From: Gordius albopunctatus
Taxonomy: Eukaryota
Direction: 5' to 3'
DNA: 64,000 nucleotides
Assembly: GCA_964276515.1 (NCBI GenBank)
Contig: OZ193910.1
Coordinates: 4,526,001 to 4,590,000 of the forward strand
The position numbers and the translations under genes are program-made. Below, piece by piece: positions 1 through 62,451 of this stretch (position 1 is the stretch's first letter; every line of letters starts with the position of its first letter). A model generated the notes under the pieces. It saw nothing but the letters and a program-made list of their open reading frames with translations, was not told where the DNA came from and ran no database searches.

Positions 1-12
1 CTTTTTGATTAT

Positions 13-1601
13 TTGAAAAATCCCCCTAAAAATGCCCTCTACTTAAGTCCTCACTTTCAAAATGAGGTTATATCGATTTGTAATGACCTAATTGTTAAAA
101 AAATAGTCAATAAAATAAACAAATCTCCCTTCTTCACAATTCTTTGTGATGAATCTACTGATATATCAGGGATGCAACAAATGTCCCTGTGTGCTCGATA
201 TATTGACTCTTCTACATTAACAATAAAAGAAGATTTTTTACAGTTTGTGCCAGTTTGTGATACGACTGGAAGAGGGCTAGGCGACTTAATTATAAAGAGC
301 ATAAAAGATCTTAATATAAATATAAATTTTTTAAGAGGTCAGGGATATGATGGGGCCAGAAATATGATTGGAAAATTCAACGGCGTCCAGGCCTATATTT
401 TGAAACCATACCCAACGGCATTGTATGTACATTGTGCTTCCCATTCATTAAATTTGGCACTTTCAGATGCCTGTACCCTTCCTACTATACGGAATTGCAT
501 GGGTATTGTTTCCAAAGTATATGATCTGTTTAAATATTTTGAACGTCATGAAGTTTTAATTGAAATGTTGTCAGAAATGGAAGATAAACCAAATAAGGAG
601 AAATTGAAGCAAGTTTGTGTCACCCGTTGGGCATCACGACATGAAGCTGTTTCCACACACATTTTGCTTCAAGATGCCATATATCCAGCGTTGGAAAAGA
701 TATCTACATGGTATGATCACGATGTTGTAACAGAAGCTGCAACTTTGCTCACTGCATTACGACAAAGTGAATATATTATTTCCCTTCTATGCCTAAATAA
801 ACTCTTTGGCTATACGTCCTTATTATGCAAGCAATTGCAAAAAAGGACCTAGATCTTCAGCAAGTCACACAGTTAGCAGAAGCTTTAGTAAATCAAATGA
901 AATTAATAAGAAACAACGTTGATGAAGTGTTTCGGGAAATTTTTTTAGTAGCCGAAGCTAAGGCTAAGTTGTATGATTTTGACCTTAAGAAACCTCGATA
1001 TGCAAAGAAGCAAACTTGTCGAAGTAATATTTTAACTGAATCCATTGAGGATTATTACAAAATCACTATTTTTATACCTTTGCTCGATATGTTCACTCTA
1101 CAATTCAATGAACGGTTCGTGGACAAGAAACAAGTTTTGGCAAATTTCCAAATATTATTTCCTTCGAATTCTTTGATTGTTTCGCCAGAAACGCGGATGA
1201 AAATAAACTTTTTATGGGACTTTTATTCCAATGATCTTAAGGGGACAAACGAAGACCTTAAATCTAAATTTAATATATGGTATATGGCGTTGTCTCAGAC
1301 GTCAGAAGAATTTGGTCCAAAGAATCCTTTGGACGCCCTATCAGGTTATAAAATATTGGAATCTTTACCCAACATCACAACTCTTCTTTACCTGTTAGCT
1401 TGTCTTCCTATCACTATATGCACCAATGAAAGAAGTTTCTCAACATTGAGGAGGCTTAAAACGTATATAAGAAATACTATTTCGAAAAATAGATTAAATG
1501 GATTGGCCCTTTTAGCGATTCATCGGGAATTAGCTCCCACTCCAGATGAAGTTCTTGAGATATTTTCGCTGGGAAAAAGAAAATATAAAATTATTTTATA
1601 A
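13..1601 (+). pseudogene. hAT transposase (ZMYM1/THAP12-like DUF4371 region plus hAT C-terminal dimerisation domain), split by a single frameshift near 839-844
   Basis: Motifs CDESTD, GQGYDGA, YVHCASHSLNL, TRWASR and TNERSFSTLRRLKTYIRNT..NRLNGLALL. ORF 13-852 and ORF 825-1601 join as KQLQKKDLDL if one A is added to the A6 run. Confidence 0.85.
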
Positions 1602-1650
1602 TGATTTTCTTTATTTAATTTTAATGTTGAAAGGAAAATGCTATAAAAAA

Positions 1651-2250
1651 AGGCCAATCCATTTAATCTATTTTTTGACATAGTATTTCTTATATAAAAG
1701 CTAATAGGTAAAGAAGAGTTGGACGAATTCCTTCTATAATTTATTTTCATTCGCGTTTCTGGCAAAACAGTCAAAGATTCAGAGGTAATATTATTTAAAA
1801 ATTTGCCAAAAGTTGTTTCTTAAGTTCAAAATCATACAACTTAGCCTTAGGTTCGACTACTAATACTAAAGTTTCTGCTAACTGTCTAACTTGCTGAAGA
1901 TCTGGAGGTGCTTTAAAGTTGCAGCTTCTGTTGCAACATCGTAATCATACCAGCTTGCTTCAATTTCTCCTTATTTGGTTTATCTTCCATTTCTGACAAC
2001 ATTTCAACTCATATTTCTGGCTCCACCATATCCCTGGCCTCTTAACAAATTTATATTTATATTGAGATCTTTTATGCTCCTTATAATTAAGTCGCCTAGC
2101 CCTCTTTTATTGTTAATGTAGAAGAGTCAATATATCGAGCACACCAATTAGGTAATTATAAATAGATATAATCTCATTTTAAAAGTGAGGACTTAAGTAG
2201 TAGCACGGTACCTTAAAAGAGCTCTAAAATTGCCATCTCCAGATGACGCT
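1651..2250 (-). repeat. Inverted, multiply internally deleted copy of the adjacent transposase ORF
   Basis: Its reverse complement matches about 11 colinear segments of 38-1509, plus one segment encoding GDGNFRALLRYRA that probably derives from upstream of the window. Confidence 0.9.
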
Positions 2251-2880
2251 GAAAAAAAGAAATCATGAAATTATTTATAATGACTTTCTTTATGTTTTAT
2301 ACCAGATTTTATAATTTTGATGTTGAAATAAAAATGTTATAAAAATTTTTTGGAAATTCCCCCCCCCCCCCCCACAGAGAAAATATTGGCTACGCGCCTG
2401 ATCAATCAGTATAATTATATAAAAAATTAATTAAGTCGCCCAAAGATTCCATATAATGTTTTTATGTGTGTTATTTAAATAGTCAGTGAAAATTTCGATA
2501 ATGCTTAGTAATTTGTACTCATTTTTTTTTATAAAAATTACTCATGTTTAGTTTTTTCATTAAATTTGCTCAGTTTTTTTTGAAAATAATTTTTATCAAA
2601 CAGTTTTGTTAGATTTTATATGAGCATATTTAAGAATTTTTAGTATTTTTTGTAGAGTTAAATTTTAAATTGTTTAAAAGGCCAAAAAGGCTTGTTTTCA
2701 AAATAATTATTAAGTTGTGTAAACTTTAGAGAGCTCAATAATTTACTTAATGGTTGTAAGTTATGAATTAATATTTTTTTATTTATAAGAAAACTACGTT
2801 TTTATCAAGTACATAATTTTATTAACTATATTGAAGTCAAACAAAATAATGCTTAAATTTTAAATCGAGTTAGCTTGTTC

Positions 2881-4062
2881 TAGTGTTACGATCTCGTCTC
2901 GGTCTCGAAAGAAAATCTCGTCTCGTCTCGGGTGCAATTATTGAAATCTCGATCTCGTCTCGTCTCGGCCTAGAAAAATCTCGATCTCGTCTCGACGAGA
3001 ATTCTCGTCTCGTCTCGACTTTTAAAAATAATTATAGCATATATTTTTTTCTGACTCTTATAAATTATTATATAATAAATTGGTCATAATGGGACCAATT
3101 TTTTATCTCAAACTCCAAAACACAAGCTGGGTATCTTAAGACATGAAGCATTATTGGAGGTGTTATATATACTACTTGCCTCGAAGATATAAAGTTGCTA
3201 AACAATAACCTTCATTTCCTGGCTAAGACTCAATAAAAGGATAAAGTTTAATAATATCATCATATTTTAACATAATCAATTTATTGAGATCTTATATAAT
3301 AACGTTAAAATAATGACAAAAATGCGAGAGTAAACTTGTGAAGATATGATTATTAATAACAAGTAATCATCTGAACATTGTAAACACAATAAAATAGGCA
3401 TTTTTGTTGGAAGAAGATAACAGTTTTGAGATCTTACGTTAATTGGACACATATAATTTAAAATATAAAAAAAAATATATATATAATTACATATATGGGT
3501 AGATAAATAAACGTCCCTGGTAGAACGATAGCGAAACCAGGGGATCTGGAGAAAGGGCTTAAAAAAACATTTTATTTGATTCATCCTTGAATACTGTGAA
3601 ATGTTTGAACAGCTTGCTATTTTTTGTGTTGGATGATGAACTTGTTGCGCATAAACTCATTATAGGTGTAAATAATTTTATATTATATAAGCTATACAAA
3701 TAAGTAAAAAATACACAAATACCCTAAGGGCTACTAACATTATGTGTATTAAGATTATATTACAAATTTGAAATTTGCGAGAAGCGGATAATTAGGTGCG
3801 TAAGTAATTACTATCAAAAGTTTCAAAATCATATTAATTTGCATTAAATACCCTAAATTTAAATCTCATAAAATAAAAATTCTTAATTAGCTAAATGAAG
3901 ACTTAATAGATAAAAATTAAAGTCGAGCTCTCGCCGACAAAATCTCGTCTCGTCTCGAGGTCAAAATTCTTGTCTCGATCTCGACTCAATTTTTCAAAAT
4001 CTCGTCTCGGTTTTTCGAGACGAGACGAGACCGAGATTTTTCTCGGTTTTTCCGTATCACTA
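2881..4062. mobile_element. Non-autonomous hAT-type MITE, family A, with (C)GTCTC-rich subterminal repeats
   Basis: Ends TAGTGTTACG.../...CGTATCACTA. Imperfect 8-bp TSD GCTTGTTC/GTTTTTTC. A second copy lies in the opposite orientation at 26338-27256. Confidence 0.85.
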
Positions 4063-4719: not shown

Positions 4720-20844
<16,125 letters not shown>

Positions 20845-25274: not shown

Positions 25275-28258
25275 GCGCTACGGTATCGATAATAGCGGCG
25301 CGTAGATGGGGAAGGTGCTCTCACGCAACAAAGAGCCCGTCCCGACGGTGTACGCATACGGCCACGAGGAAATAAAGATTGTAGCCAAGGTGCAAGTCGA
25401 TTTCCGAATCGGTAACACGAGGAAACAGCTGCCGTTATTGTCAGACGTAGCTGGACCGCCGTTGTGCGGGATCGATTGGATCCAAGAATTCGAGCCGAAA
25501 TTTGGCGACGAATATGTTGAAACTCGAGAGCTGCTGCTGAACGGTTTGCTGTCAAATACGTGGAAAGGCCGAAGGATACCAAATCGAACGGGAGGCGCTG
25601 CCGGTGTTCTATGGACTAATAAAGTTCAATGAATATATACAAAGACGAAGCGTTTCAATATGACGGATCATAGACCGCTAGTATATATATTTTTTTAAAG
25701 CAAAAGGGCCAAAGAACAATGGTCGCCACGTCTAACTAGGTGGGCGCTCATGGTATCAGGTTACACGACCAAGTTTGAGTACAACAAGGGATCCGAAAAC
25801 ATGGCAGATTTCTTGTCCAGAAAACAGAACGAACACGCATATCATGTTAGCGAGGAAATGTCAGAAGATTTGTCGAATCCAGTCATATCATTGGACTTGG
25901 TGGGACAACACGCCTTAGACGATCCAGAACTACGTCAGTTAAAAAAGAGGATAAGAGGGAAACACAATGGTCACTTATGGGCTAAAATGCTCCTACGAAA
26001 CACCTGCCAAAGTTACATGAAAGAAAAAACATAATATTTTACAAAGGGCGACGAATATTAATTCCGGCTAAGTTAGGAGGAGTTGTACTCCAAAGACTAC
26101 ATAGGGGCCACGTGGGTATTTAGCGAATGCAAGAAGTGGCGTGGCGTGGCAGTATATATGGTGGCTTACTCTCGACTATGACTTATTGAGCGTAGCAAAA
26201 GGGTGCTGGAATTGCAATTACACTGCCGCTGCGGCGAAGAAGGCACCGTCGATAGAGTGTCAACCTAGCCATAGACCTTGAGTTCAAGTAGATTAGGACA
26301 TCATGGGCCCTCTCAGAGGTAAGTCATACTTGGTGATTAGTGATGCGGAAAAACCGAGAAAAATCTGTCGAGATCGAGACGAGAATTTTGACCTCGAGAC
26401 GAGACGAGATTTTATCGGCGAGATCTCGACTTTAATTTTTATCTATTAAGTCTTCATTTAGCTAATTAAGAATTTTTATTTTATGAGATATAAATTTAGG
26501 GTATTTAATGCAAATTAATATGATTTTGAAACTTTTGATAGTATTTACTTACGCAGCTAATTATCTGCTTCGCGCAAATTTCAAATTTGTAATATAATCT
26601 TAATAGACATAGTGTTAGTAGCCCTTAGGATATATATTACTTATTTGTATAGCTTATATAATATAAAATTATTTAGACCTATAATGTGTTCATGCACAAC
26701 AAGTTCATCATCCAAAAAAAAGAGCAAGCTTCTCAAACATTTCACAGTATTAAAGTATGAATCAAATAAAATGGAGAAGTGTAAATTGTGCTTTGAAAAT
26801 TTTTTTATATTTTAAGTTATATATGTGCAATTGATGTAAGATCTCAAAACTGTTATGTTCTTCCAACAAAAATGCATATTTTATTGTATTTACAATGTTC
26901 AGATAATTACTTGTTATTAATAATGATATGTTCAAAAGTTTACTCTCGCAATTTTGTCATTATTTTAACGTTATTATATAAGATCTCAATAAATTCATTA
27001 TGTTAAAATATGATGATATCATTAAACTTTATCCTTTTATTGAGCCTTAGCCAGGAAATGAAAGTTATTGTTTAGCAACTCTATACCCTCGAGGCAATAG
27101 TATATATAACACCTCCAATAACGCTTCCTGCCTTAAGATACCCATCTGAGATCGAGATTTTTCTAGGCCGAGACGAGACGAGATCGAGATTTTAATTATT
27201 GCACCCGAGACGAGAAGAGATTTTGCTTTCGAGACCGAGACGAGCTCGCAACACTACTGCTGATGGTGGACAATGGCTTTAAATGGGTACAGGTGTTCAA
27301 ATTAGAAGACACCACAGCGACCACTATTATAAAAAAACTTGCCGAAACGTTTGCAATATTTGAAAATTGACCATTTTTAATATCAGATAACGGGCCGCAA
27401 TTCAAAGGGCAAGAATTACAGAGTTTTTGCATGATGATAGGAATCAATCAGCGATGGACAGCCCCTTATCACCCGGCGTTTAAGGGTTTGGCAGAAAGGT
27501 ACGTACGATTAATTAAAGAAGCCTTTATAAGAAACGAGTCGGAAGTAGGGCTTTTTGTAAAACTACAGAGCTACAAAACACCCCACAACCAATAAAAGCC
27601 CAGCTGAGGTGATTCTAAAAAGGAGGAGCGAACCAAATGGGGGGGGGGGGGGTATTGAGGTAAACCGTACCACAACAATGGTTAGAGACCAGGAACCCGC
27701 GTATGTTTAACGTAGGAGACATTGTTTGGTACGCATGTTTTTGGGACCAGCAAATGGGTAGAAGGCACTATAAAAGCCAAGCACGGTAGTCGTTCCTAAG
27801 ATGTGTGTGCACAGAGAAGAAAGCACTACCGACACGTAGATCAAGTAAGGAAACGGAAAATTCTGGATTGGACTACACTAAAACAAGAGATCGGGTGGCC
27901 GCAAAGGATATCATCAGAAGGGGAAGCGGGAACAAGTGCTAAAGGGAACAAACGCCAAATCGGACAAGTGTTGCAAGGGAACAAATTCACAACCAGTCAG
28001 GAACGCCCAAGAACATTCATACCCTCAGCGTAGTCGGAAACCGCCAGCATTTCTTAAGGATTTTATCTGTGAAAAGGGGAGAATTGTAGGAAGATAATTG
28101 AGTGCGGAGTGCCTTGAGCGATAAGTAAATTACTAAATGGTAAAATGTTACTGGTAATGCCTCAAGTGACAATAAAATTTTTGTATATATGATTATCATT
28201 CTTACTATTTTAATATCCTTTCGTAACGTGTTTTGGATATTATTTCCCCGCTCTTAAC
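25275..28258 (+). mobile_element. Decayed Gypsy (Ty3) LTR retrotransposon remnant: protease-like, RNase H and integrase fragments, PPT and putative 3' LTR
   Basis: TDHRPLVY and RLTRWALMVSGYTTKFEY..NMADFLSR (RNase H end); LHRGHVGI (integrase Zn finger); SYLVMVD..KW, SDNGPQF and TAPYHPA (integrase core). PPT AAAAGGGGAGAAT near 28072-28084 precedes a TG...CA segment. Many stops and frameshifts. Confidence 0.8.
26338..27256. mobile_element. hAT-type MITE family A inserted in the Gypsy integrase
   Basis: Reverse-orientation homologue of 2881-4062; TSD TTGGTGAT/CTGCTGAT. Confidence 0.85.
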
Positions 28259-28464
28259 AAGGTTTGTTTAAAGCTTTTATAAATCTATGTTCATAGAAAT
28301 ATATTGTGCGCTGTGTAATATTTTTATCATTAGACAAATAAGATTTGCAAGATTCTCTTTCAAACAACACATCGACGATCTTACTTTTTTTATATAATAT
28401 TTGGCCGATATCAAATATAATTTAGCCTCCATATATAAGCGCACTATTAGGAATCTTTAAGAGG

Positions 28465-28608
28465 ATTTTTACCCTCATAATTAATGTTCTTCATAGATAT
28501 ATTTTACTTATCTGACGATGTCCTCTATGAGGACGAAATATTATATTAACTACAATAATTTTTTAACACCCTCGACAATTCCCGAAAATATATCTATAAA
28601 GAACATTA
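28465..28608 (+). mobile_element. Penelope pseudo-LTR-derived mini element with a hammerhead-like core (28512-28538)
   Basis: CUGACGA-U-GUCCUC-UAU-GAGGAC-GAAA. Inverted ends TAATGTTCTTCATAGATAT/ATATCTATAAAGAACATTA. Flanking ~19-bp direct repeat ATTAGGAATCTT..AGAGG at 28446-28464 and 28605-28624. Confidence 0.7.
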
Positions 28609-28821: not shown

Positions 28822-31800
28822 ATGGTTCAAAACCTTAAAATATGTGGATATATAAATTTTAAGTTTATAGATAACTCATTGGGAAATACTCAACCTGATA
28901 GTTAAGGATCATAAAATTTTATAAAATCTTATATATAGTTATTAGAAAATATGAAAATCAAGCACAGTCTTATGGTGACAAAAATATAAGCAATTTTATT
29001 TTGCGAAAGTCGAAGTTTTCTATATCGTCTTGCAATAATGTTATTGCTCTATCGTTTTACAACAAATTTTTAGTGCTAAAAGGTATAATTTGAATTTTAT
29101 ATAGTTTAAATTTTTTTAAGCAATAAATAAAGATTATTTTAAGAAAGATTTCAATATAATTCATGAGCAAGACTGCAATGAAAGTATTGGCTATATTACA
29201 TCAATACTATGCTTAACTATTTATTCTAAAAAGTACTAAATTCTTAATATGTATGCATGAATATGTTTTTTTGTTTATATTTAACAATCTAAGAGAAGGA
29301 AGCATAGAATGAGCAATGTTATGTTTTGATTGAAATATAATTTTAATTATGATTTATAAAAATTTCTCTATAAATTTTATTATATTTTTTTAACATGTGA
29401 TTGGAATTCTTAACCATTTTTTTGCAATGTATTTTATTTTGTTTTTTTAAAATATTGATATAAATAGAGATGATAAAAACAATCTTGTGATCCTATTTGT
29501 TGGCTTTACAAGTGGCCGTTTAAGGGCTTACACTGAAAATGGGAAATTTTTATTTTCTTTTTGTATGGATGATTCTTCTATTGTGTGTCTTAAAATTAAT
29601 GCTTCAAATAATCATCCTATTCATCATAGTGACCTTGCAGTTAAAGAATCAAAAGTACTTGATATGTTTTATTTCTTATGATTTAGGTTTGTCAACTATT
29701 AATATTGCACAAAAGTTGCTTAGTATTAATTCCAGCAAGTTATCTTTATGATTTAATAGAAAAAATACTAAAAGGTATGCCTATATCAATTAAAAGTGTT
29801 TTTTATAAATTTAAATTATATTTAAAATTAAATAATATATTTACATCTACATGTAATTTTAAGGGGATCTTTTACCAGAATCAACAATTGATCTCAATAA
29901 TGTTCCCTCAAAAAAATTATGGATAAAAGGGAAGCAGCAAAATATGCAAGATATAGCTTTGTGTGGTAAATTGATTATTTAATAACTTAATTTCTTTGTT
30001 AGTCTAATTATTTTTGCACCTATTTGTTACAAAGTTAAAATCATTTGTGTAACATCTATAGTATGAATTTGATTTTATTGTAATTATATCACTACACTTT
30101 TATTATATTAATGTGGAATAGTCACTTATAAATAGAAATACAGTGTTGAAATCATTTGTGTAACATCTATAGTATGAATTTGATTTTATTGTAATTATAT
30201 CACTACAATTTTATTATATTAATGTGGAATAGTCACTTATAAATAGAAATACAGTGTTGAAATCATTTGTGTAACATCTATAGTATGAATTTGATTTTAT
30301 TGTAATTATATCACTACAATTTTATTATATTAATGTGGAATAGTCACTTATAAATAGAAATACAGTATTAAAATTTAGTATGAAGTATCAAGTTTTGCAC
30401 AAAATTTAGACTGTTACAAGCATTACAAAACGATTATATTAAAACTTCACTCTGAGACATGGTAGATTCCTTTGCCCTTTTAAACTCTTACACGAGTGAT
30501 GTAAACCACAATTTAATTAGTAAAATTTAACATTTTAATCAAATAAGCTCAAAACTGCATCTATTAACAATTTGGATTTAACAGAAATTGTTAAAGTATT
30601 TTATTAACACATTGACCTCATAAATCATATATATTTTTCCTAGCAAAAATCTAGTTTGTATCAATAATTATTATTTATATTTAAGGTTTTAGGCGATTAT
30701 CAACATTTGATCAACTTCGCCTAATATCCTGTTTTAACTCGTTCCGTACAAACACACCACCCAGCTCCAATTTTCACTCATATGCAATATGCGGATTCAA
30801 GCCATTTTTGGGCCTCTATTATTTGGAAGAGGTTTGATATAATTACGAAAGAATGGCTCAGTCAATAATGGAGCTGAAAAATATGATATATTTTGGAAAA
30901 AAAATTTTTTAATAAAATAAAATTATAGATTATCTCCCACTGAGTTAATTTTGATTAGCCCTATAAAAAAATTTAAATAATATTTCTGTTAATTTTATCA
31001 TTTTTCTATATTTTAATAATAAAGAAATTGAAATTGTTCTAATAAATAAGTCAATGCAAAAACCTCTAGTACTAATTAACAAACTCTCATCCTGAAATCG
31101 TTGACTTTATTTTAAAAATTTCAAATCAACCAGGCAAATTACAATTTAAAATTATTGTACTCAGTAGAATATTTTAAATGCTCTGTAGAATAATCTAATG
31201 CTCAATAAATAATTTAATGTTCAGTAATTTTATAATTTGTTCAGTTTCTTATTCAAATCTTGCTCTGTAATTTTTTTAGTTATCAACATCCTAGATATAA
31301 TCGCAGTAACTAGATCAAATTTTATAATTTTAAAGGAAGGAGAAACAGTTCCCAAAAATTTGACGGATCAATTAAGTGCAGCAACCTCAAGGCTTAAAGA
31401 TACCCTGACCTCCTCCACTTCGGCCCTAATGTCAAATTTGCCAGGGTTTTTAAAGAGTGGAATAAGCAACGTTTCCTCCTCCAAGCTAGCTAACACTCTG
31501 AGCGACGCAACTAGTAAAGTCATATCTCGCCTCACCTTGGGCAACCTCAATTTAAGGTTAATTTCCTACTCTTTCTATTCCTTTTTTTGGATTTTAAAAG
31601 AATTATATTTCGTTTTTATAAATATTTGCTGTAATACCAATAGATAATGGCTTAGTTACCATTTTTTACTTGGGATTGGGGCGAACGTGAAGAGGGGTCA
31701 AGGGCGCGTTTTAAAAAATGCTCCATAGCCATTTTCGAAATCAGCTGTTTATTTATGTAATTTTTATTAACTCCATATTATGTTCCCAAATATTAGATCT

Positions 31801-34800
31801 TCCTTGTTAATTTCGACTTACGGATGACGCGCGGAGCCTAAAAAAGCGAAGTGAATATTTGGGATAATTTATCAAACTCTTCTTTCTTTTTCTTAATATC
31901 TTTATATTCATCGTGAAATTTATCATATGACAATAGTATTTTGCCAATATAATTGATAAGATCGTAATTATTCTCTAATCATATAAAATTATATGAAAAA
32001 TACATACATACCAAATTCTATTTTTTAACCATCGTGCGAAAAGTACAAAATGATTTGTATCTTATTTTCGTTCGCTTTAATCGTCTGCGGGCCAAAATAA
32101 TCGTCTGCAGTTTCACTATGAACGCCTCCTATAATGTTTGATAAATTAGCACAAAAATTTACTTCGCTTTTTTTCGCTTTCGCCACGCGCGAAACGGAAA
32201 AAATCGAAGTGAATATTAGGGCTAACTTATGAAATTCTTCATTCTATTCCTTAATACCTTTATATTCATCGTGAAATTTATCATATATCACGAAAATAAC
32301 AATTGTAAATAGGAGGTGTTCATAGTCAAACCGCAGACGATTATTTTCGCCCGCGGCAAAAAGCGAACAAAAATAAGATACGTAAATAATTTTGTACTTT
32401 TCGCGCGATTGTTGAAAAATCGAATTTGGTATGTATGTATTTTTTATATAATTTATATCATTAGAGAATAATTACGATCTTATTAATGATATTCGCGCAA
32501 TACCTTTGTTATATGATTAATTTCACGATGAATTTAAAGATATTAAGTAAAAGAGTAAAGAATTTGATAAATTAGCCTAAAAATTCACTTCGCTCAGTGT
32601 CGTTTTTTATAAGTAGACTATGACCTTACATAGTAAGTCAAAAAATTTTTGGAAATGTCTAATTACTTTATATATTTTCTATATAGAGTTTAATACAGTT
32701 TTATTGCTTCGAAAAATGCTTATAAATGAATCTTTTTCGTTTTACAAAATATTACTAAACTTGAATTAGCGTCTAATGTTGTATTTTTTAAACTGTTTTA
32801 TTAACGGTTCAATTTTGATTAAGCGTTTTTATTGATAATTTCTGATATTGCAGTGCTTTAATTAATCGTATAAAAGTAATTCTTTATATTCTTAAAAATT
32901 ACCTTGAGTTATGGGCTTTTTAAAGTATGGGATTAGAATTATCTGTTATTTGATATATAGGGCTTTCAATATCATTAAATTAATCGGGTAAACAGTTAAA
33001 GTCAGTTAAAGAAATGTTAACAATTCATCGGTCTTTTAGTATTTGTGTAGGCCATAATAATTATGTTGAGCTTTATGGCATCAGAACCAAATTATCTAGG
33101 CGCGAGAGTCTTGATTTTTTCACCCTGCTAAGCTATAAATTTTTTAATTTTATTTATCAAGGTAAAAATACATATTTTGTGGAGATGAATGAATTCTATA
33201 AATAAATTGCCAGGTATGGCTTGTTGGATTCCCGAAGTGCAACGCACGTAGTAGCTAGCCCGGACCGCAACTATTTGGCTTTGACCGACAATCTTGGGCG
33301 AGTTTTGATAGTAGACGTGGAGCTGACCATCATTATCCACATGCTAAAAGGTTATTTTTACTCCTGCAAACTTAGTCTTCTCAGTATTATATTAGCTTTT
33401 AGTCATTAATTAAACCTAAGACTATATGGCTGATGTGTTACTAGATACATCAATGTGTATACAGAAAAATAAAGATGGTAATAGTAATCATTATAACTAC
33501 TCATGGGAGTAGCCAGCATTGGAATTAGAGGGGGGTGGGGCAAAATGATCATTTTGCGAAATTTTAGCCCCATAATTATAAGAAATTTCAATTAATTTTA
33601 GGATTTAAAGGAGGCAGCCCCCCCCCCTCCAATTTTTTCATTATGATTTCCCTAATAGCTCAAATTTTTTATCATAAATCTGCCCCCCCCCCCTAATTCA
33701 AAACCTGCGTACGCCCGCCCATGCTTTGATTTAATATTCCCAAATCGTAAAAAGTTTCCATTTTCCGCAGCACATGCCTACAGTTATCACACTAAAACAC
33801 TACCTACTCTCATGCACACACACACACACACACATAGTTTCATTTAGGTTGCGTTTGATTGACGTTTTATTAAACGTCAAAACGTATAAAACAAACTAAC
33901 TCACAAACTACTGGACCGATTTGGCTCGAACATATCTTAAAACATGCTCCGGAGTGTGGGGAATAAACTGTGAAATTTTGAGCCAAATCGGTCTGGTATT
34001 TTTCCGAAATTTGTGGCTGCATATATACACACATACACACATACATAGTTTCATTTTTATGTATAAGATTTCGTGATTAATAAATGTTCACTAAACCGTT
34101 TAACTTTTAGATGGTGTAAATGTGATAGTGTTGTAAAAGGGGCAGCGTTTTGTTTGGATTACCTTCGCTTTTAGTCTTCGTATCATAAAAATGCGCTTTA
34201 AATAGGATACGATTCATTAATTTTAATTTACTTTCTAGAACTACCGCGAATATTAAGTAGCTTTATTTTTCGTACTACTACATCTTTCGCATAAATTTAT
34301 TCAACTTCAAAATTTATTCTCACTTCAATTATTTCCACCGACAATTCGTTTTATAGTAGTAACAATAATAATGATGGATGAGGTAATCAGATTAGGCGTA
34401 AATAACGATAACGCACAAATAATAATAAACAGCGAAGTGGTAACAGTAATAATAAATAGCAAAGATAACAATAAACTAACAATCATCGTGATTCTACAAT
34501 CTCTTAATAAACGCGTGGCCGTGAACAGCCAAACGAGATCATAAAATCCAAATTTTATGGGTGAAGGGATAAAATTAATCCAAGGGTAATTTTAGGGTGA
34601 AGAAATAAAATTATTAAAAACTTGGCTTAATGCCACAGTCGACTAATTGCAACCACACCAAAGGTTCGACCAAACAAAAACCAGCCGTTTTTACAACACT
34701 AATAAATGAATTTAATTTGGAGAATTAATGGTATTATTTATAATATTTTTTTATAAAGGGTATCGAGACGCCTCTTGTGGTTGGATTGGCATTAGTAAAT

Positions 34801-46859: not shown

Positions 46860-47775
46860 AAAAACATTATATGAGTTTTTAGAAGAGGCCAGTAATCCAA
46901 AAAAGATTTGAAATAAGATTTCAATAAAAATGCGGGGGAATGTTTGGAGGGAGGGGATCGCCTGCCTATTTCTTTGAATAAAGCCAACGCCATTTTTCCA
47001 TAGGATCCTGAACAGGAGGAAACTATTGGGATAAAAATACTAGAGTCCAAGAGGGCCTTGTATTTTTGGAACTTGCGTTCTTCAGCTAGGGCCATGGGGT
47101 CATAATTAAGATTAGAGGGGCAAATACATCTATGCATGTAAAATCCCACTTTAAAAGGAGAACATTTTCCCATGGGACTAGCGAGGAACCGTCAGGACGC
47201 ATTCGACCTTCAAGGGCGCGACCTGAGGGTCTAGTATGGATGGGATTTTAGTTTTTCAAAATGTAAAATGCGTGGTGGGCGGGCATAAGCTTAAAAATTT
47301 CATTTTTACATTTTAAATTTTTAGATTATTGTCGAGATAACTTCTTAAACCTTCAGGACTGCCTATTGGAGAACCTAGTAAAAATACATCGTCCTTCACA
47401 AGGCCTAGAAAAGATGCAAAGGATGGGTGGATGTCAGTTGTGCTGTTAGAATAAATTTTGCATTTTGTCGCGTTTAATGATAGGTTAAGTTTTATGTAGT
47501 ATTCATTAATGATGTTTAGAGCTTTGATTAGCTCTTCCGTGGTGCCTGATAGGGTGGCATAGTCGAGATACCATACATTCAACCTCAAATTGCATTTGTC
47601 ATTGATTTCATCTATTAATGGTTTGATGGCCATACAAAATAAGGGGGCCAGGGGGTCCCCCTGTTGAATGCCCTCAGCTGAATCAATAGAAAATTGTCCA
47701 AATTTTAAAATAGACTGGGTGCCATAACTTAAAATAATATAGTTGGCATATTGGGGAAAAGCATCGATGAAAGTG
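46860..47775 (-). mobile_element. Decayed CRE-clade non-LTR retrotransposon (RT plus restriction-like endonuclease fragments)
   Basis: GIQQGDPLAP, CMAIKPLI..LNVWYLD(Y), LLGSPIG; C-terminal RPDG..LVPW, WDFTC and AEERKFQKY. There is a large deletion between the RT and the REL domain. Confidence 0.7.
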
Positions 47776-50261
47776 TTACCCTTTACTCATAGGCTTCAGC
47801 CTTTACGAACCCCTACATTAAAACATTTAACCTACCCCTCCCCGACAAGAGAGCTTACCTACCACAAAATACCCGAAATATTAATTTTGTTTGAGAGCTA
47901 TAGGTCATTATAATACGACATTAAAAGTTCAAGCGAAATCCTAGTATCATAACGAACAGAGTTGCCTAAGTCATATTATGTCAATTTCTCCCGACACCCA
48001 TCATAACAGCACCATCCTAATTTTTCCAAACCCCGAAGACAGCAGTGGTGCCCTGTCCCGGTCACAAGAGTCGTTCCCTTCCGCGGATATCATCGTCTTC
48101 ATTATCAGTTATTTGGTCCCACAGTCGTGGGGTTTTTAATAAGTTTCCTCCATTTTGACGGGGGGAGTGCCATGTTTTGACTAATAATTTTTTTTATAAC
48201 TTTGCCGACTTGCCCTTTTCAGGTGACACGGGGTGGTCCTCTTCCTCTCTTTCCCGGTACCTCCATGTCCAGTACTTTTCGATTTACTTCATTCGTGTCC
48301 CTTCTTAGTATATGCCAATACCACCTTAGCCGCTTTTCGTTAATCATATCCGCCATAGGTTGAATACCCATTTTTGTCATGAGAAGGTCATTCGTCATAT
48401 GGTCGTGCTTAGTATACCCCAAGCTCCAAAGCATCATTCTCATCTCTGCTTGTAATGCTTCCCTTCCGTAGTGTTTAATGCCAATGTTTCACTTCAATAT
48501 AAAAACATCGGTCTTACGATAGATTTGTAAGCTTAGCTCTTCAATCATATGAGCATTTTTTTGTCGCAAATTACACCGGATAAACTTCGAAGTTTAAGCC
48601 ATTCTTTTTGGATCCGGGCATTGACTTCTGTTGCGCAACATCTTTCTTGATGTAGCATCGAGCCGATGTATATAAATTTGTCTTTTTCACCATATATATT
48701 CATCATTTGTCTTAGTGCGAAGATTGGGTCGATTGTGGATTTGCCGACTACAAATCCGAATTGGTTAGACGATATTTCCACCTCTTCTTTCAACATTGTT
48801 ACCAAAATCTTTTCCTTACGCTTCAAGGAGTGGCAAGTTAGCTTGATACCTCTGTAATTGCCACAGTCCTGAGGTCTCCTTTGCCTTTAAATAATGGTAT
48901 AATCGTGCTTGCTCTCCTTAGATTATCAATTCGCTATTCTACCAATATCTTGTTAAGAAGGTTAGGATGGTGACTCCTTCTTCACGGCATCCGAGCAATG
49001 CTTCCATAGGTATTCCATCTGAGCCATTAGTGTTCGTTTGTATCTTACCTTCTCCTCCTGAAAGTGTTCGGCCATACTTATGTTTGGCTTAATATCGGGA
49101 AGGGAATCTTTGTCATTTGCAATATTAAAAAAGTTTCTTAAATTATCCTTTCCATCTTTCCACCACTTCCTTCGGCTTGAATAAAATTTGACCCTTCTCG
49201 TTTTTGAGTATTTTAGGAACTCCGAAATCGAGACTTGTCTTCTCCCTTATCTCCTTTATGATTCTGTTTGCCATCTCGGTGTACGCGGCATTCTTCGCTA
49301 TTGCATCGGCCCTTCTATACCCTTGATAATCCTCCGAGATTTTTTATTTATGCAACCGTCTTAATAGATTTTTCCTTCTTTCGAAGAAATCCCTAACCGA
49401 ATGATCCTACCATCATATTTTCCTATTCCGAGCTTTGCCTCCTTTGGCCTGTCCTAGAACATGAATAGCAATTTCCTTTATGCCCTTAGATAGCGTCTAT
49501 CAATCGTCGTTTACGTCCCTTTTAAACTTCCCTGCAACCAAGAGTGAGCAGGCTTTTTGATGGTATTCTTTGTTCGTCGACGTATCCTTTAGCCTTTCAT
49601 ATAGAATTCGAGGTTCATATCATAGACTTTTCTTCTTTCAAAAAATACTCTTCTGTCAGGATCCATAACAAGAGGACGATGTTGCTTGCCGATTTCTTCT
49701 CGCATTACTTTGCAATCCTTGATACTCCATAAGTCCTTTCGCCTTATGAGCAGATAGTGAATTTGAATAAAATACTTCACACTTCTATAAGTCACAATAT
49801 GATATTTGTGTTTTTGAAAATAGGTGTTAACGATCGCCTTTTCGTATGCTTGGGATGTTTTTCCCCTTCTTTGTTCTTCAGACCACCCCCATAGCCTCAA
49901 TGATTGCATTGATACCCAAACCCATCTTTCCCTACATGAGAGTTGAAACCGCCCCAATGATTAGCCTTTCTTCCTGTAAAATTCCTTGTATTTCCTTTCC
50001 CAATGAATCGAAGTATATGACTTTTTGTGATTCTATACACCCAATTTGTGGAGCATACGCACACATAACGGCTAAGAGGGCGCCTTAATGTGCAATCTTC
50101 ACCCACATTAGCGTGTCTGAACGACGTTTGACTTCCACAACCTTGTTTTTGAACGATTTGCTTAGAAAGATACCGGCCCCGTTTCTACGATTTGGTAAGC
50201 CACTGTAGAATAGTTAATATTCTTCTCCTAACTCCTGAGCATTGGTTTTGTTCCACCTCGT
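47776..50261 (-). mobile_element. Decayed RTE-clade LINE (APE plus RT fragments), truncated at its 5' side by the Penelope insertion
   Basis: TRW..LFYSG..RNGAGI, AYAPQIG, FNSHVG, IVNTYFQK, NYRGIKL, QFGF..GKSTIDPIF, MRMMLWSLG..KRLRWY.HILRR..GKRGRG; many disablements. The boundary of the 3' tail is approximate. Confidence 0.8.
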
Positions 50262-50858
50262 CTTTATATGAAACATTCTGTTTAGGATATCCGAATCACC
50301 TATTTAATGATATTCTAAAAAAATGTTTATCCGAAAATAATCAAAAAAATAATGATAGAACTTTTAAAGATTTCCCACATCATTCATCCCTACCATTTTC
50401 ATTTATCAAAAGCATTTAAAAAATTTTAAAAAGTCACGATATTAATAACATAACGATTACGCCAAAACCCAACCAATCACTCTTAACCATCTTACAAAAT
50501 AACTATGAGTCTAATTTAAATAACGTAATCTATAAAATAACATGTAGTGATTGCAACCAGTTTTACACCGGGGAAACTAAAGAGCACTTGGCGGCTTTAT
50601 ATCGCCAAACGCGGTACCAATTGGAGTATCCAACCACATTTTACAAGATAAACACTCAATTTAACTTTTTGCAAATCATATTTTGGAAAAAAAGACGTTG
50701 GAGTCCTTATTTATTAGAAAACTTAACCCACTTTAAATGAAGATATAGGAAGGGTACACTCCTTTACCCTTGGCTATACACAAACTTGTCACTTACAATA
50801 GAACATTCTCTTTAGTTTATATTCTAGTTTATTTACATTTATTTTGTTTTTTATATTT

Positions 50859-50885
50859 CTGAAGATGTCCTTTATAAAGACGAAA
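50859..50885 (+). ncRNA. Hammerhead-ribozyme-like core
   Basis: CUGAAGA-U-GUCCUUUAUAAAGAC-GAAA, with one stem II mismatch relative to the 53797 copy. Confidence 0.5.
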
Positions 50886-52456
50886 TATTATAATAATTAT
50901 GATTTGTTTTTACCACCATCTAAATTCCCGATAATAAATCTCTGAAGAACATTGATTATGAGGGTAAAAATCGTCTAAAATTTATATCAAATTCTTACGG
51001 GAAGATTCAAATTAAAGATATTCATCGATTTTTAATCTCCAAACCGAACTCAATCGCACCGTAAATAAGATAGTATTCTTATCAACCTGTCTAGGTAACA
51101 ATCTTATTCTAAATTATATTAACCATATCAAATTTAATGAACATGAATTTAACGAAAAACTTATTCATATAAACACAAGTATAAATATTTTTTCGTTTAA
51201 CCTAATGTATTTTGAAACTCAAATATTAAAGAAAAAATTAAAGGATCTCTTTCTCAGACGAACAATTTATAACAAACCAAAAAATATTTGTCGATAAATC
51301 CTTTTAAGAGATTTATTAGCAGGTGCAATAGAGGGAGTTAAAAAATAATTCTAATTATTATAATGATATTTCGCCCTATTCAAGCACATCGCCGGATTAA
51401 AACAAAATTGAATTTACAAATAAAATAAAATGATACAATTAAATGGAACGTTCTATAGGTGGGTTGATATTATAACTTAAAAATAGATACATGTTCTCAT
51501 TGAGTGTTGGGTTTAACCTTCGAATGAAGAAGGATTTTAGGGTTTTTCTTTCAATATAAGTTTCGGTATTAATTAAATCGGTTGTTTTCAAATTGGTTGC
51601 ATGCTTTTGTTGTATTAAATGATTTGAAATGGCGGTTAAATTTGCCTTTAAGCGATATAATGCCGCTAGATGTTCCTAGAATTTTTTTTTTTAATTAATA
51701 AATTCCCTGAAATCTCTAAAAAAATTACATTTCTATTAATGAAACAAGTGTTAAGTTAAATTTTATATAGAGAACTGCACGGGTAACCCGAGACCCGATA
51801 TCGGGTCGCGTCGGGTTCGGAACCTTCTTAACCTAGGACCCAAATTTATTTTTAGAAAAGCAAAAACTTTCCCTCTGATGCAAACGATAAACAACGTCGA
51901 GAAAATATTAGAAACGATTAAACGAGAAAAGCCGGAAAATAATAGAATCTTGAACATTTGAATACCCAGATAGGATACAAGCTTAATAATTTTAAAATCC
52001 AAAAATCTCAATCTAAGGATAATTTATGTATAGATGCAATAAAAAAGTTAAAATGTATAAGGATTTAAAAATTACTAGGGCAGATAAGGGAGGACAAATC
52101 GTTCTGATGAACATGAAGATGTATGAAATAATGAATGATAAAAAGCATTTTATCACATTAGATAAGAAGCCAACCCAGACATGAGAAATGGCACTTAATA
52201 AGATTTCAATCAATATATTTCGTAAAAATCTTTTATCTAAGGAGGATTACAATTACGTTAGATCCTCAAACCCTAGAACACCTCAACTATACTTCGTCTA
52301 ATCATGCCAACATCTAACGCCTACAATTACAATTTTTCCAAATTTATTAAACGAATTTTTATCACCTATTTCCAAAAACAAATACTCAATTTTCTTCATA
52401 GATACATTTTCGGGAATTGTCGACGGTGTTAAAAAATTATTGTAGTTAATATAATA

Positions 52457-52486
52457 TTTCGTCCTCATAGAAGAGGACATCGTCAG
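52457..52486 (-). ncRNA. Hammerhead-ribozyme-like core
   Basis: CUGACGA-U-GUCCUC-UUCUAU-GAGGAC-GAAA. Confidence 0.55.
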
Positions 52487-53796
52487 ATAAGTAAAATAGA
52501 TTTAAATAAAATAGATTTAAATAAAATATAAACTAAATAGAATGTTCTTTTGGTAGTGATAAATTAGTGTGTATCCAAGGGTAGAGGGGTACTCTTCCCA
52601 TATCATCTTCATTAAGAGTGGGGTTAAGTCTTCTAATAAAGAAGGACTCTTCTAACGTCTTCCTTTCAAAATATGATTTTGTAAAAAGTAGAATTGATTT
52701 TTTGAGTTTTGACGTATGATTTTCCTTTAAAATGTGGTTAGATACTCCTGTAGGTACCCCTTTGGGGCGAAATAAAGCCGCCAAGTGTTCTTTAAGTCTA
52801 ACTCTTAAGTCTCATTTTGTTTCCCCGATGTAAAACTGGTTGCAATCACTACAAGTAATTTTATAGACAACGTTATTTGTCTGTAAATCGAATTCATAGT
52901 TATTTTGTAATATTGTTAAGAGTGGATTCATTAGGTTTTTGTGTGATGATGATGTTTTTAATATCATTACTTTTTAAATTTTTTAATTGCTTTTAAAAAA
53001 TGTAAATGGTAACGATGGGTGATGCGGAAAATGTATAAATTTTTAATCATTAATATTTTTTTGCTTATTTTCAGTTAAAAAGCATTTTTTAGAATATTAT
53101 TGAAAAGATGATTTGGATATCCAAGAGAACAGAATGTTTCATATAAAAAATCATATTTTGAAAGGAAGACGTTGGAGTCCTTATCTTTATATGAAACATT
53201 CTGTTTAGGATATCCGAATCACCTATTTAATGATATTCTAAAAAAATTTTGTCCGAAAATGATCAAAAAAAATGATAGAACTTTTAAACATTTCCCACAT
53301 CATTCATCCCTACCATTTTCATTTATCAAAAGCATTTAAAAAATTTTAAAAAGTCTCGATATTAATAACATAACGATTACGCCAAAACCCAACCAATCAC
53401 TCTTAACCATCTTACAAAATAACTATGAGTCTAATTTAAATAACGTAGTCTATAAAATTACATGTAGTGATTGCAGCCAGTTTTACACGGGGAAACTAAA
53501 GAGCACTTGGCGGCTTTATATCGCCAAACGCGGTACCAATTGGAGTATCCAACCACATTTTACATGAAAACCATACGTCCAAACCTAAACGCTCAATTTA
53601 ACTTTTTACAAAATCATATTTTGGAAAAAAAGACGTTGGAGTCCTTATTTATTAGAAAACTTAACCCACTTTAAATGAAGATATGGGAAGGGTACACCCC
53701 TTTACCCTTGGCTATACACAAACTTGTCACTTACAATAGAACATTCTCTTTAGTTTATATTCTATTTTATTTACATTTATTTTGTTTTTTATCTTT

Positions 53797-53823
53797 CTGA
53801 AGATGTCCTTTATAAGGACGAAA
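53797..53823 (+). ncRNA. Hammerhead-ribozyme-like core
   Basis: CUGAAGA-U-GUCCUU-UAU-AAGGAC-GAAA. Confidence 0.55.
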
Positions 53824-56800
53824 TATTATAAAAATTATTATTTGTTTTTACCACCATCTAAATTCCCGATAATAAATCTCTGAAGAACATTGATTATGAG
53901 GGTAAAAATCTTATAACATTTATAAGATTAGCTTCTCTATTTGAAGCTAATTAATAATAGTTTAAGATGTTTTACAACGCAAGTCAAAATTACGGTATTA
54001 AATCCAAATTAATTAAATTGAGTATCCTAATTGAACAATTTAAAGGACAGTGTGCTCAACTATGGACATGTGGATATCTAATTAGACAAAGGTCTTTAAC
54101 GCTTAGCATTGATCTGAGTTTATAAATGATAACTTTCAGGAAAAACTTCTTTTGCCCATTTATATACAATTAAATTGGTTTGTTGGACGGATCACAACAC
54201 TCGCAGTTACTAACGAAGAAATTAATTTTTACTAGCAAAAGCCTCAATTAACCCATCGATTTAATTCTTCGCTATACTTTAAGGCGATCATAAAAATAGT
54301 ATTCAATATTGCATTTATTTACTATTATTTTAATAACCCGAGCCCAAAATGCCGATTTTGGTAGAGGCCGGGCCTTAAGTGCATAAAGAAACATACGGAA
54401 GGGCTCGGACGGGCTTAAAAGTTTTCCAAACGATTACGGACGGGCCGACCTCCTAAAGACGGCCCGATACAGATTTCTAATGCAGATTCCCTTCTTATTA
54501 TTTGCATAAATGAAGAGAGACTTTCGAATGCGTTATAAGCATATTAAAATTTCTAACATATTTATTGCACTAAATAGATGCAATCGTCGAGATTAGTCAA
54601 GCAATTTGTTTTACTAAGTTAATATACGATATTGCTATGCAGCAATGTCACTTAATATGCGTTGTTTAGTATGCACGTACAGGCATAAAGAGTTGCCAGT
54701 GATTTGGATGCAGGAAGTAGTTTAAATGTTAACATTTTAGTGTCTATTACGCTATCCACATATAGAAATTTCACTTTTGTACCGTTATATCGGGGGATGG
54801 TTTAAATGTGTTCTGATGAAAAAATGTTTTTTAAATATAAAATAAAAAATAAATTTAGATTTGTAATGTAATGTAATATTTATAGGCATGTTATTTTGAG
54901 CAAAAATAAGATTGATATTTTGTGGCACATTTTTTGCAATTTACTTCATGATCAATCAATAGGTTATAACCAGAGGAGCACATATTTAACTGTGTCAAGG
55001 GCGTCAATTAAAAAAAACGCTAAAATTGCAAATCACAGCTTAAAACTTTATATGCTTTTTTGCTTATGGATGACTACAAAAACTGTATTCCTGCACCTTT
55101 TTAAAACAAAATTCTGACCTACCTTTTAAAAGTGCTAATATGGGCGAAGCCAGGGAGAGGCAGGAACGGTCGGCTGCCACCCTCTAAATCCCAAAATTAT
55201 TTGAAATTTATTAAATTAGGGCTAAAATTTTGATAAATTGTCATTTTGCTCCTAAATAAATCTTTATCGCCCCCCCCCCCCTAATTCCAATGCTGACTAT
55301 GCCCATGAGTCCTGATGTCAAAAAAGAACAGAATCACAATTCAACAAAAATGCTTTAGATGGCAAAAACAAAGGGAACCAAATCAAAAAGTTACAAATGA
55401 GATTTCCATCCTTTAGTAAAGGAATTAATACCAACTCCCCACAAAATTAAATGCATTCGAGTGAATATTTAAAATCCACTAAGGGTCGGGCTTTAGCATT
55501 GAACTGTTCGAACTAAGTAAAAGCTCTAAACGCATCAAACTTATTATTAGTTTATATTTAACCTTGATTTATCTTGTAATGTCAAGCAGAATAACCTTTA
55601 AATATAACAAAAGTTTTTACACTTACATAAAGAGATTAGTTATAGTAGAATTTACAAACTCACTTATCTTTGCATACTATGATAGATAGGGTCTTTACAC
55701 CTTGCGTGTTCAAGGTAGCAATGATTACTGACCTACTTATTTATTATAAAGTGATGCTTATTGGAAAGTCATTTTCTTTTTTCTTCCTTTTTAACCAATA
55801 TGACTTAAGCTACTACTTGAAGACGCTTAAGTTATGTTTTTTTTATTCAAACCTCCAACGACAATCGCATATTTTAGCGCGTTTAAATAATAATATTATA
55901 GATTTTACTGGACCAAGAGAGAGATTAAATTTGATATTAATTGCCAGAGGATGTAGATTAAGGGCAACTATATTTTTCTGACGCAATTTGGTTAATGTTA
56001 CTTTCATTTTAAATATAAAAAGATTCATATTGCATAATTTCGATTTTTAACGATAAAACTGTTTAGTTGAGGCTTGTAATTATTAATAAGAGTTGAGTTT
56101 AATTACCCATTCTTTATAAAATGATGGAATCAATGGGGCATCTTTGTAAAGTACTTAAAAATTTTACATAGTTTATTGACATTTTGATACTTCAAATGCA
56201 CATTTTAAAATGATAATTATAAGCCATGTAACAAAAAGGGCAATAAGCTGCGGCTGGCGTTAACACTTTACTTAATTAAAAATGTTCTCAACCCTCAGCA
56301 TCAATCAGCTAACTTTAACTTTTTGGACATAATGGTAAAAGTATTTCAATCAAACATGATCGATTTTTACACCCATTTAAATTAACTGCACATATGCAAA
56401 TGTAATTGAAGGTTTAACCCCCCCCCCCCCCGTAAACTTTTCAACTTTGTTATGAGTGTCGCGTACAATAGGTTCATGTACTTACCTATCCCCCCCCCCT
56501 CTAAAAAATCTTTTCGGCAAATGAACAAACCGATGGAGGTGTATGAATGAGGTTAACACTCACACTATCTTTTGTAGAAATATAATGCAAGTGTAAGCAA
56601 AAACGGCAGTAGCTAGCGGTATAGGCAACAACACACCCACCATAGTAACGATTGTATTTCAAAATGCCCTAATGCGTTGGGGAAAAATCAATAGGAAAAT
56701 GGAGATAATGGTTGCCATAATTTGCGGCCCTGCTTGCTCCCTCCCCCAATGGGCAGTCATAGCTCACGCAAAGACGCTGAGTAACGTTTTCACTCCGCCC

Positions 56801-60900: not shown

Positions 60901-62451
60901 CTTTAATCGTTTTATAGCATTTTCTAAAGAAGCGACGAGAAACATGAATCGTTCATCGGTCATAGCACAGAGTATGTATATTTCGAGTAATGACCAGTCT
61001 CCAAAATCGCCCTTAGCCAATTACAACATTGAGCATCCTTCTAGGGATAATAATGATGAAAATCATGCTAAAATAAACGGCGACTTACAGCTCCCAGGCA
61101 ATGACGTAGAAGACAAAAGTCATTGTCAGGATTCTTTATCAACTTCAAACCCTCCTTCATGGTCCTCACTTAGTTCATCCCCTTCTTCCTTTATCCTAAA
61201 TTGGTGGAAAAAAAGAGCTGGAAATAGCAACGGTCAGCGCAGGTCGAATGACCGCAAAAATAACATTTCACACCTATCAATATCTCCAGATTCGGGAGGG
61301 TCTTCACTAAATTCATCAAAATGTGCCCCTCGGCCTAGTAATCCAATCCCCAAGGAATTGACTTCGAAAGAAGATAAACGTTCTTTTTGGAGAAGTTATA
61401 TGCACTTACCCATTCCCAATAAAAATAGACCACTGTCATATGCTGCCCAATGTAACAGTGAAAAAATAAAGAAATCTTTCAAATACTCGCCCCATAAATC
61501 AGGTAATGTTTCTAACGCTTATGCTTTAAAATCCAAAAATAGTAGGCTTAAAAGTGTAAAATTTAAATTTAGACCGTTATGTTGCATTTAGTCCAGTTAA
61601 CAAGGGCCCACTTTTGAACATAAGATTAAAATAATGTTTTGGCAGTTAAAAGAAATAAATAAAATTACTTAGAAATTTAAGGAGGTTGCTAGGATTTTGA
61701 TAAGATTTGTGGAGAATGAGGTTTATTTAAAATTGCAACTCACAGAACTTAATTTTGAGCCCCTATATTTCGTTAAAATTCCGTCAATATATAATTAAAA
61801 TATTCAGAAATAAGAAAACAATAGTTAGGGGGTGAGGTTGTATAACTTCCATGCCCTAAAAAAGTCTATCGATTGGATCTTAAATAAAAGTAAAATTATA
61901 TCTTTTTTATACAGAGAAAAGAATGTCAATTTTTTATGAATCTCCCTCGATGGAAACAAATTTAAAGAAAGGCAAAAACAAAATACTCCAATCCATGCCA
62001 AATATATTTGGAGCTAAAGATATTCCTTTTCAAATTACGGAAAGCGAATGGAGAAATTTTAAAGCCGAAATCAAATTTGAATCTAGTGACGCGGAAGAAG
62101 ACAATAATAATCAAATCGATCAATTATATGAACCGGTGTCCAAACAACTTTTAGTCCGTCCCATTTTGAACGAAGAAAATAGGTAATGTATTAAATATAA
62201 AATTTTCTATAAAGATGATAATTTTTAAACATTATTTACGTCATTCCTGAGAGAACAAAAGGCTAAATGTTTTAATTCAAAAGTCAATCAATACCTTTGC
62301 CATTTCTATACAATCCTAATATTTGTTCATCAATATTTAGATCAATATCTGGCCAGCGACTAAATAAAGATGAATTCAAAGGATACAGTAATTATGTATC
62401 CCAACACTATCGATTTTGGGAACAGTCCTCACCATCTTGTACAGTTAAAAG
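57951..62451 (+). CDS. USH1G: USH1G/SANS (ANKS4B-family) ankyrin-repeat scaffold, spliced; 3' end unresolved
   Basis: Exons 57951-58126, 59155-59831, 60918-61502, 61915-62182, 62341-62451. The N-terminus [96 protein letters not shown] matches the SANS ankyrin region. Confidence 0.8.
59989..60589. mobile_element. hAT-type MITE in an intron of the SANS-like gene
   Basis: Ends TAGAGCCCTGCA/TGCAGGAGTCTA; 8-bp TSD TGTATGAT/TATATGAT. Confidence 0.75.

Follow-up and report, generated by a model that had tools for sequence, protein, structure and literature searches.

An antisense mosaic of its own transposase gene in a hAT transposon of Gordius albopunctatus, with a possible role in self-damping

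Results

The locus

The window, by which we mean the whole stretch of DNA analysed, is 64,000 nucleotides of contig OZ193910.1 from Gordius albopunctatus (assembly GCA_964276515.1). It opens inside a hAT transposon: bases 1–1601 encode the last two thirds, on the 3' side, of a DUF4371-group hAT transposase. The features of the element are listed here.

1–852, plus strand: hAT transposase ORF, 5' frame (PF14291, DUF4371, E 1e-17), open at the window edge
801–1601, plus strand: hAT transposase ORF, 3' frame, which includes the dimerisation domain and the stop codon (PF05699, E 1e-8)
1513–1647, plus strand: spacer or loop of the predicted hairpin, made of the ORF end and the first 3' UTR copy (alignment)
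1648–2240, minus strand: antisense arm, made up of 12 pieces of the transposase ORF in colinear order (self-BLAST and gapped alignment)
2247–2345, plus strand: direct duplicate of the ORF end and 3' UTR at 1567–1649 (self-BLAST 71%, E 5e-11)
2327–2332, plus strand: AATAAA poly(A) hexamer, presumably used, the sole canonical one from the stop codon to the end of the element
2388–2400, no strand: candidate 3' terminal inverted repeat (TIR), with the element end at 2400 and unrelated loose ends past it; the partner TIR and the target-site duplication lie outside the window

The 5' frame contains motifs of the DETD, YDGA and HCxxH type, and is about 50% identical to named ZMYM1-like and THAP12-like proteins. 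The transposase is 35–51% identical to ZMYM1-like or 52 kDa repressor (THAP12)-like proteins of insects and Gordionus, and the best named matches at the C-terminus are Gordionus proteins (43–44% identity). The C-terminal hAT dimerisation domain (PF05699) scores 35 bits against a Pfam cutoff of 21.4, so that this feature of hAT transposases is present. A preliminary description of the sequence had regarded the sense ORF as undeleted; this holds in that there is no large deletion, but the window's copy has a frameshift near 838–850. Many contigs of related copies have one extra base at 838, and there the reading frame is kept. The superfamily is among those retained in nematomorph genomes, according to one report (10.1101/2024.06.11.598342).

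Contigs assembled from seven public runs (designated X1, X2 and so on), which are not on record as RNA, were aligned to the window. Position 2400 is a sharp end common to copies at many sites, with unrelated loose ends in 15, 30, 23, and 32 contigs of four runs (agreement 0.41–0.46). The antisense block had been placed inside the element on the strength of the putative TIR, and fixing the end at 2400 bears this out. Just past the end, at 2403–2416, X1 and X3 have a second allele or paralogue with small indels at about half depth, which may represent the empty site or else the second haplotype.

Elsewhere in the window, four related short repeats (6379–6537, 17494–17617, 33499–33623, and 55148–55314) have C-runs like those at the end of the element, and are probably the ends of other small DNA transposons. 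An inverted repeat of about 290 nt at 31845–32594 is MITE-like, with 87% identity and an inner direct copy (31827–31928/32185–32286). A direct repeat pair, 94% identical, is found at 50261–50986 and 53184–53924, with a 75% inverted copy between them (52382–53147), and pieces of this region recur at 9141–9388, 28456–28607, and 51304–51587. By eye, its short frames look like the tail of a GIY-YIG endonuclease, and we take it to be perhaps a decayed Penelope-like element; Pfam gave no match to a GIY-YIG or Penelope-type family in the repeat at 50261–53924. There is also a reverse transcriptase fragment at 47313–47786 (PF00078), a 111-nt unit in three tandem copies, 95–97% identical, at 30028–30374, and a host ankyrin-repeat gene at 59153–61591, which is USH1G/ANKS4B-like. 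The best named match of this gene is in Gordionus (53%, with 98% of the query covered), in keeping with a horsehair worm (nematomorph) as host.

Structure of the antisense arm

Bases 1648–2240 consist of antisense pieces of the hAT transposase ORF of the element itself, joined in colinear order, and begin after 46 bases of UTR past the transposase stop codon. Self-BLAST gave 10 minus-strand matches of 1647–2200 to 39–1513, strictly colinear, with E values from 3e-40 to 1e-5. Gapped alignment placed 556 nt of the arm on the ORF in 11 pieces of 14–97 nt with 43 mismatches (7.7%); these pieces and a twelfth, all on the minus strand, are as follows.

1648–1697, minus strand: piece 1, equivalent to 1463–1512
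1698–1721, minus strand: piece 2, equivalent to 1378–1401
1722–1735, minus strand: piece 3, equivalent to 1304–1317 (14 nt, weak alone)
1736–1821, minus strand: piece 4, equivalent to 1125–1211
1822–1863, minus strand: piece 5, equivalent to 945–986
1864–1914, minus strand: piece 6, equivalent to 842–890
1915–1953, minus strand: piece 7, equivalent to 708–746
1954–2009, minus strand: piece 8, equivalent to 558–613
2010–2106, minus strand: piece 9, equivalent to 270–366
2107–2144, minus strand: piece 10, equivalent to 189–226
2145–2201, minus strand: piece 11, equivalent to 38–94
2202–2240, minus strand: piece 12, source just upstream of the window, encoding GDGNFRALLRYRA

The coordinates given in the preliminary description agree with these to within a few bases, and piece 3 is an addition to its list. 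The last segment had been described there as a hAT motif from upstream of the window. This reading is supported in two ways: GDGNFRALLRYRA (minus strand, 2240–2202) occurs in homologues some 20 residues ahead of the point corresponding to the window start, and contigs that extend beyond window position 1 continue with an opposite-strand match from 2201 (with a side of up to 35 nt).

The arm is followed by the direct duplicate of the ORF end, which was found by self-BLAST and had been overlooked in the preliminary description. The overall layout is ORF, antisense arm, and duplicated 3' end. The two copies of the 3' end align over 92 nt with 11 substitutions and 3 indels, and the duplicate may start as early as 2238, given a 9-nt match to 1541–1549. 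The equivalent of AATAAA in the first UTR copy (1631–1636) is AAGGAA, which may be the result of drift; it may also be the family state, with no variant at this place among those listed.

The predicted RNA fold of 1–2345 has 517 of 554 arm bases paired with the ORF, in 12 unbroken helices of 19–55 bp, and a gain of about −474 kcal/mol over the two halves folded apart. This prediction agrees with the earlier suggestion that a read-through RNA would form a multi-segment duplex. The 43 mismatches are distributed 14/12/17 by codon position, with 12 G-U wobbles on the sense RNA versus 14 on the opposite strand, and neither a codon-position nor a G-U bias was found among them. Rfam covariance models gave no matches in 1500–2450 at E 0.1.

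Occurrence in other copies and relatives

A junction was counted only where a contig had at least 31 nt on each side. Of about 16,500 contig pieces aligned, 58 were listed, and in these at least 7 of the 13 arm junctions are bridged, by contigs from five studies. The junction from ORF end to arm (1647/48) is bridged in X2 and X4 in copies about 10% diverged, and the far end of the arm is joined to the duplicated 3' end in X3 in copies 12–15% diverged. The inner junctions bridged are 1863/64 (X8), 1953/54 (X7 and X9), 2009/10 (X7), 2144/45 (X8, and X1 as a joint 94>189), and 2201/02 (X3 and X8); those in X7, X8, and X9, which are three further studies at low depth, show 0–12 differences. The flank is matched without differences in X1 and X3, and the window may itself come from these, which leaves four independent studies. 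The structure as a whole is pieced together, as among the contigs listed none covers the ORF, the entire arm, and the end.

Given that the junctions recur in contigs of five studies, and in some copies that are 10–15% diverged, the arm is on this sequence comparison a family feature, and neither a one-off nor an assembly artefact. A block unique to this locus would have told against the preliminary description; other copies have identical junctions. One ORF contig in X3 that matches exactly has 28 times the depth of the flank contig, which roughly suggests that close copies number in the tens; summed depths were not taken as copy numbers.

Three kinds of joint were left out of the count. A joint 2106>2105 in X7, with 38 extra letters, and a joint 1863>1864 come from ordinary ORF contigs placed on the arm. 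Joints such as 1589>2299 were considered as arm-less copies, and are indistinguishable from misplacement between the two direct repeats.

Other versions of the element are also present. Further deletion joints recur in ORF sequence at 1009>1107 (several runs), 773>821, 505>542, 251>322, and 1443>1482, where either orientation in the element is possible. In another multi-copy rearranged version, present in 23 X2 contigs and 13 X4 contigs, the first 22 bases of the arm (1652–1672) continue into sense sequence beginning at 542. The depth of 2275–2336 is about 10 times that of the ORF and arm in X3, and many shorter relatives seem to have this 3' end in common. In 16, 11, 13, and 1 contigs of X1, X3, X4, and X8, a loose end is attached at 2269 to the duplicated 3' end. 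On the minus strand it reads, by eye, LGQL, resembling the zinc-finger motif of homologues. If this reading, which rests on four residues, is right, the loose end belongs to a second arm that reaches about 90 codons further upstream and has a different junction, which would suggest that the ancestral arm was longer and that trimming took place in at least two lineages.

At least 16 of the 43 mismatches between arm and ORF are variable among copies (40 of 201 variant rows), and in 15 of these the other letter restores pairing. For 11 of the 15, the restoring letter has a share of at least 83% in all four runs. Since shares near 100% are not explained by cross-placement of ORF and arm, most visible mismatches are private decay of the window copy. 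Three mismatches in the 38–94 piece are restored in X2 and X4, and the restoring letter reaches only 16–41% in X1/X3. They are thus seemingly common to the X1/X3 copies, which indicates that the arm does drift. The near-identity of arm and ORF fits a young age or conversion equally with selection.

In more distant DUF4371-group hAT loci, a self-antisense arm was found in none of 88 (80 from metagenomes and 8 from a genome collection), of which only 17 were informative, having 1 kb of ORF and 800 nt downstream, and where short-read contigs may break at inverted repeats. Five of these loci have minus-strand protein matches and no nucleotide self-match. These ZMYM1-like and 52 kDa repressor (THAP12)-like hATs have the same domains and motifs as the window element but lack its arm, which is therefore, as far as these loci indicate, not general to the DUF4371 hAT clade. 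Viral contigs were also searched, and nothing was found.

Origin of the arm

Template switching typically leaves direct duplicates on both sides of an inversion, and is the likely origin of the arm. Copying would have changed strand at about 1647/1512, proceeded through the ORF in reverse, and gone back to the sense strand close to where the ORF ends, to give a duplication–inversion–duplication. The long arm would then have lost stretches of 43–191 nt, blunt or at short microhomologies, while their partners in the ORF were spared because the transposase is needed. This later shortening, by repeated small deletions, is probable.

The arm has ten such internal deletions of 43–191 nt and the ORF has none of comparable size. 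The gaps are blunt or have 1–7 nt of microhomology, summing to 17 versus 7.6 expected (P 0.01). A splice origin was rejected, as splice-type ends are absent from all ten gaps on both strands, even when the ends are allowed to slide by up to 4 nt. Skipping of local hairpins was also rejected, as the deleted stretches fold barely better than random ORF stretches (mean z −0.35). GC content is alike in kept (0.33) and lost (0.35) pieces.

In simulations of uniform deletion, the number of pieces, longest piece, and largest gap were jointly matched in 0.2–0.3% of cases, and a model with deletions targeted at long stems gave the same joint match in only 1–3%; these statistics were picked post hoc, with the observed gap sizes as input. 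It is only suggestive, then, that the arm was cut more evenly than random deletion would give. A second repeat in the window serves as a control: its inverted copies at 2881–3993 and 26359–27256 are 6% diverged, with indels of 136, about 80, and 48 nt between them. Gaps of the size seen in the arm are therefore normal for this host, and host-type deletions alone would suffice. The earlier proposal that the deletions preserve coverage of the ORF thus gains from the even spacing, but loses from the same-size deletions in another repeat.

Proposed function and alternatives

The best explanation, in our view, is that a template-switch inversion, shortened by deletions, is now damping its own transposase, and we put the chances of this at about even. 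Transcripts would mostly end at the downstream AATAAA and so include the arm, and repression of the transposase by the duplex would act via cleavage by Dicer, via editing, or via a block to translation. Weaker 3' ends upstream would supply mRNA free of the hairpin. We count in favour of this explanation that the arm is shared, that nearly all of it is predicted to pair with the ORF in a read-through RNA, that pairing is restored in other copies, that the ten deletions are confined to the arm, and that these are evenly spaced and show microhomology. The intact AATAAA past the arm, with AAGGAA before it, is counted for self-damping. Against a function we count the lack of codon or G-U bias, the same-size indels in the control repeat, and the absence of the arm from the 88 distant loci, while the high copy number reached despite the arm counts against self-damping.

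The host is relevant here. Paragordius is reported to have no piRNAs, with no Piwi found (PMC4323106), and four nematomorph genomes are described as largely without PIWI and without RdRP (PMC13650160). In a lineage reported to be without piRNA and RdRP, a hairpin built into the element would be among the few ways of producing silencing RNA. A stronger version of the explanation would make the arm a selected built-in brake: an antisense summary of the entire transposase gene, past which the poly(A) signal has been moved, such that every copy makes a silencing hairpin in a piRNA-less lineage and several subfamilies have trimmed the arm independently, all keeping one. We offer this version tentatively, and consider it on the unlikely side.

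Among the alternatives, the one that survives best, although we doubt it, is that the arm is a neutral hitchhiker. One inversion in a master copy would have been broken by ordinary or palindrome-driven deletions and carried along by transposition bursts, with transcripts ending before the arm, or with the arm having no effect on mobility. The indels of the control repeat, the neutral-looking substitutions with no G-U bias, and the 88 distant loci without an arm are all consistent with this. So is a report on nematomorph mitochondria, which describes them as rich in inverted repeats, maybe kept by conversion without function (PMC6649704). However, the arm has suffered at least 10 small deletions and yet was never lost, despite its flanking direct repeats; even spacing is rare in the simulations; the sole canonical AATAAA lies downstream of the arm; and several runs have what may be a second arm with another end point.

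It is improbable that the arm is instead a silencer favoured by the host, sitting mainly on defective or non-autonomous copies and repressing intact elements in trans, as a mobile analogue of Mu killer or Ac killer. Such copies are suggested by the frameshift in the window copy, by the many derivatives that the roughly tenfold depth of 2275–2336 in X3 points to, and by the other deletion joints in ORF sequence. However, the frame-keeping base at 838 occurs in many contigs, the ORF end is joined to the arm in copies about 10% diverged, and arm-specific and ORF-only depths are of the same order, depth being a rough guide.

Less probable again is an escape in progress, in which the original long hairpin was harmful, each deletion that shortened the duplex was favoured, and the arm is a vanishing remnant. 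The longest arm piece, of at most about 100 nt, would fit, as would a number of deletions that exceeds expectation from the single control pair at the given divergence (these numbers being small). However, about 520 bp of predicted duplex are still present, loss of the whole arm between direct repeats would be a simpler route, and the six joints that perhaps show such a loss are at single-copy depth and ambiguous with the direct repeat. Finally, inverted repeats are prone to misassembly, but the recurrence of the junctions in five studies, and the lack of splice-type ends at any of the ten gaps, make an assembly artefact or a spliced antisense cDNA insert extremely improbable.

Discussion

Self-damping by the arm, if correct, would resemble known systems in maize. 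Ac killer, also a hAT derivative, is an inverted duplication that gives dsRNA, siRNAs, and heritable repression, once probably from its own promoter (10.1101/2020.01.07.897926). The window element likewise has an inverted duplication of hAT sequence. Ac killers are single-locus products of alternative transposition with continuous arms of 1.8–3.9 kb from the 5' end. In contrast, the window arm lies 3' of a full-length ORF in a multi-copy element and consists of 12 short pieces, and its hairpin RNA is predicted.

Mu killer is a duplicated and inverted transposon part whose hairpin acts against transposase RNA, with siRNAs shown (PMC2563033), and thus is likewise an inverted duplication of DNA-transposon sequence. 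It is a single derivative of Mutator, not of hAT, with a perfect 2.4 kb hairpin that acts in trans. The window arm differs in having pieces of at most about 100 nt, in being amplified with its family, and in recurring in diverged copies. By analogy, the window element would resemble Mu killer and Ac killer in its working but belongs to neither.

In animals, fold-back dsRNA from Tc1 read-through and the antisense promoter of LINE-1 are examples of element-borne dsRNA feeding RNAi (PMC3878927). In Tc1 the pairing is between the terminal inverted repeats, and in L1 it follows from transcription in both directions; neither has an internal antisense coding copy. No published description of the layout ORF, antisense arm, and duplicated 3' end was found in a search of mostly open-access literature, with repeat databases outside its scope.

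It has long been asked whether transposons restrain themselves or are restrained only by their hosts, and animals provide few clean test cases. The present element is one, given that it offers a removable module of 600 bases, exact predictions, and a lineage reported to be without the usual piRNA defence. Small RNAs and editing would be expected on the kept pieces and be absent on the gaps, and there would be a choice between two 3' ends. Even if the arm is neutral, it is a record of a long inversion broken into short pieces inside an amplifying element.
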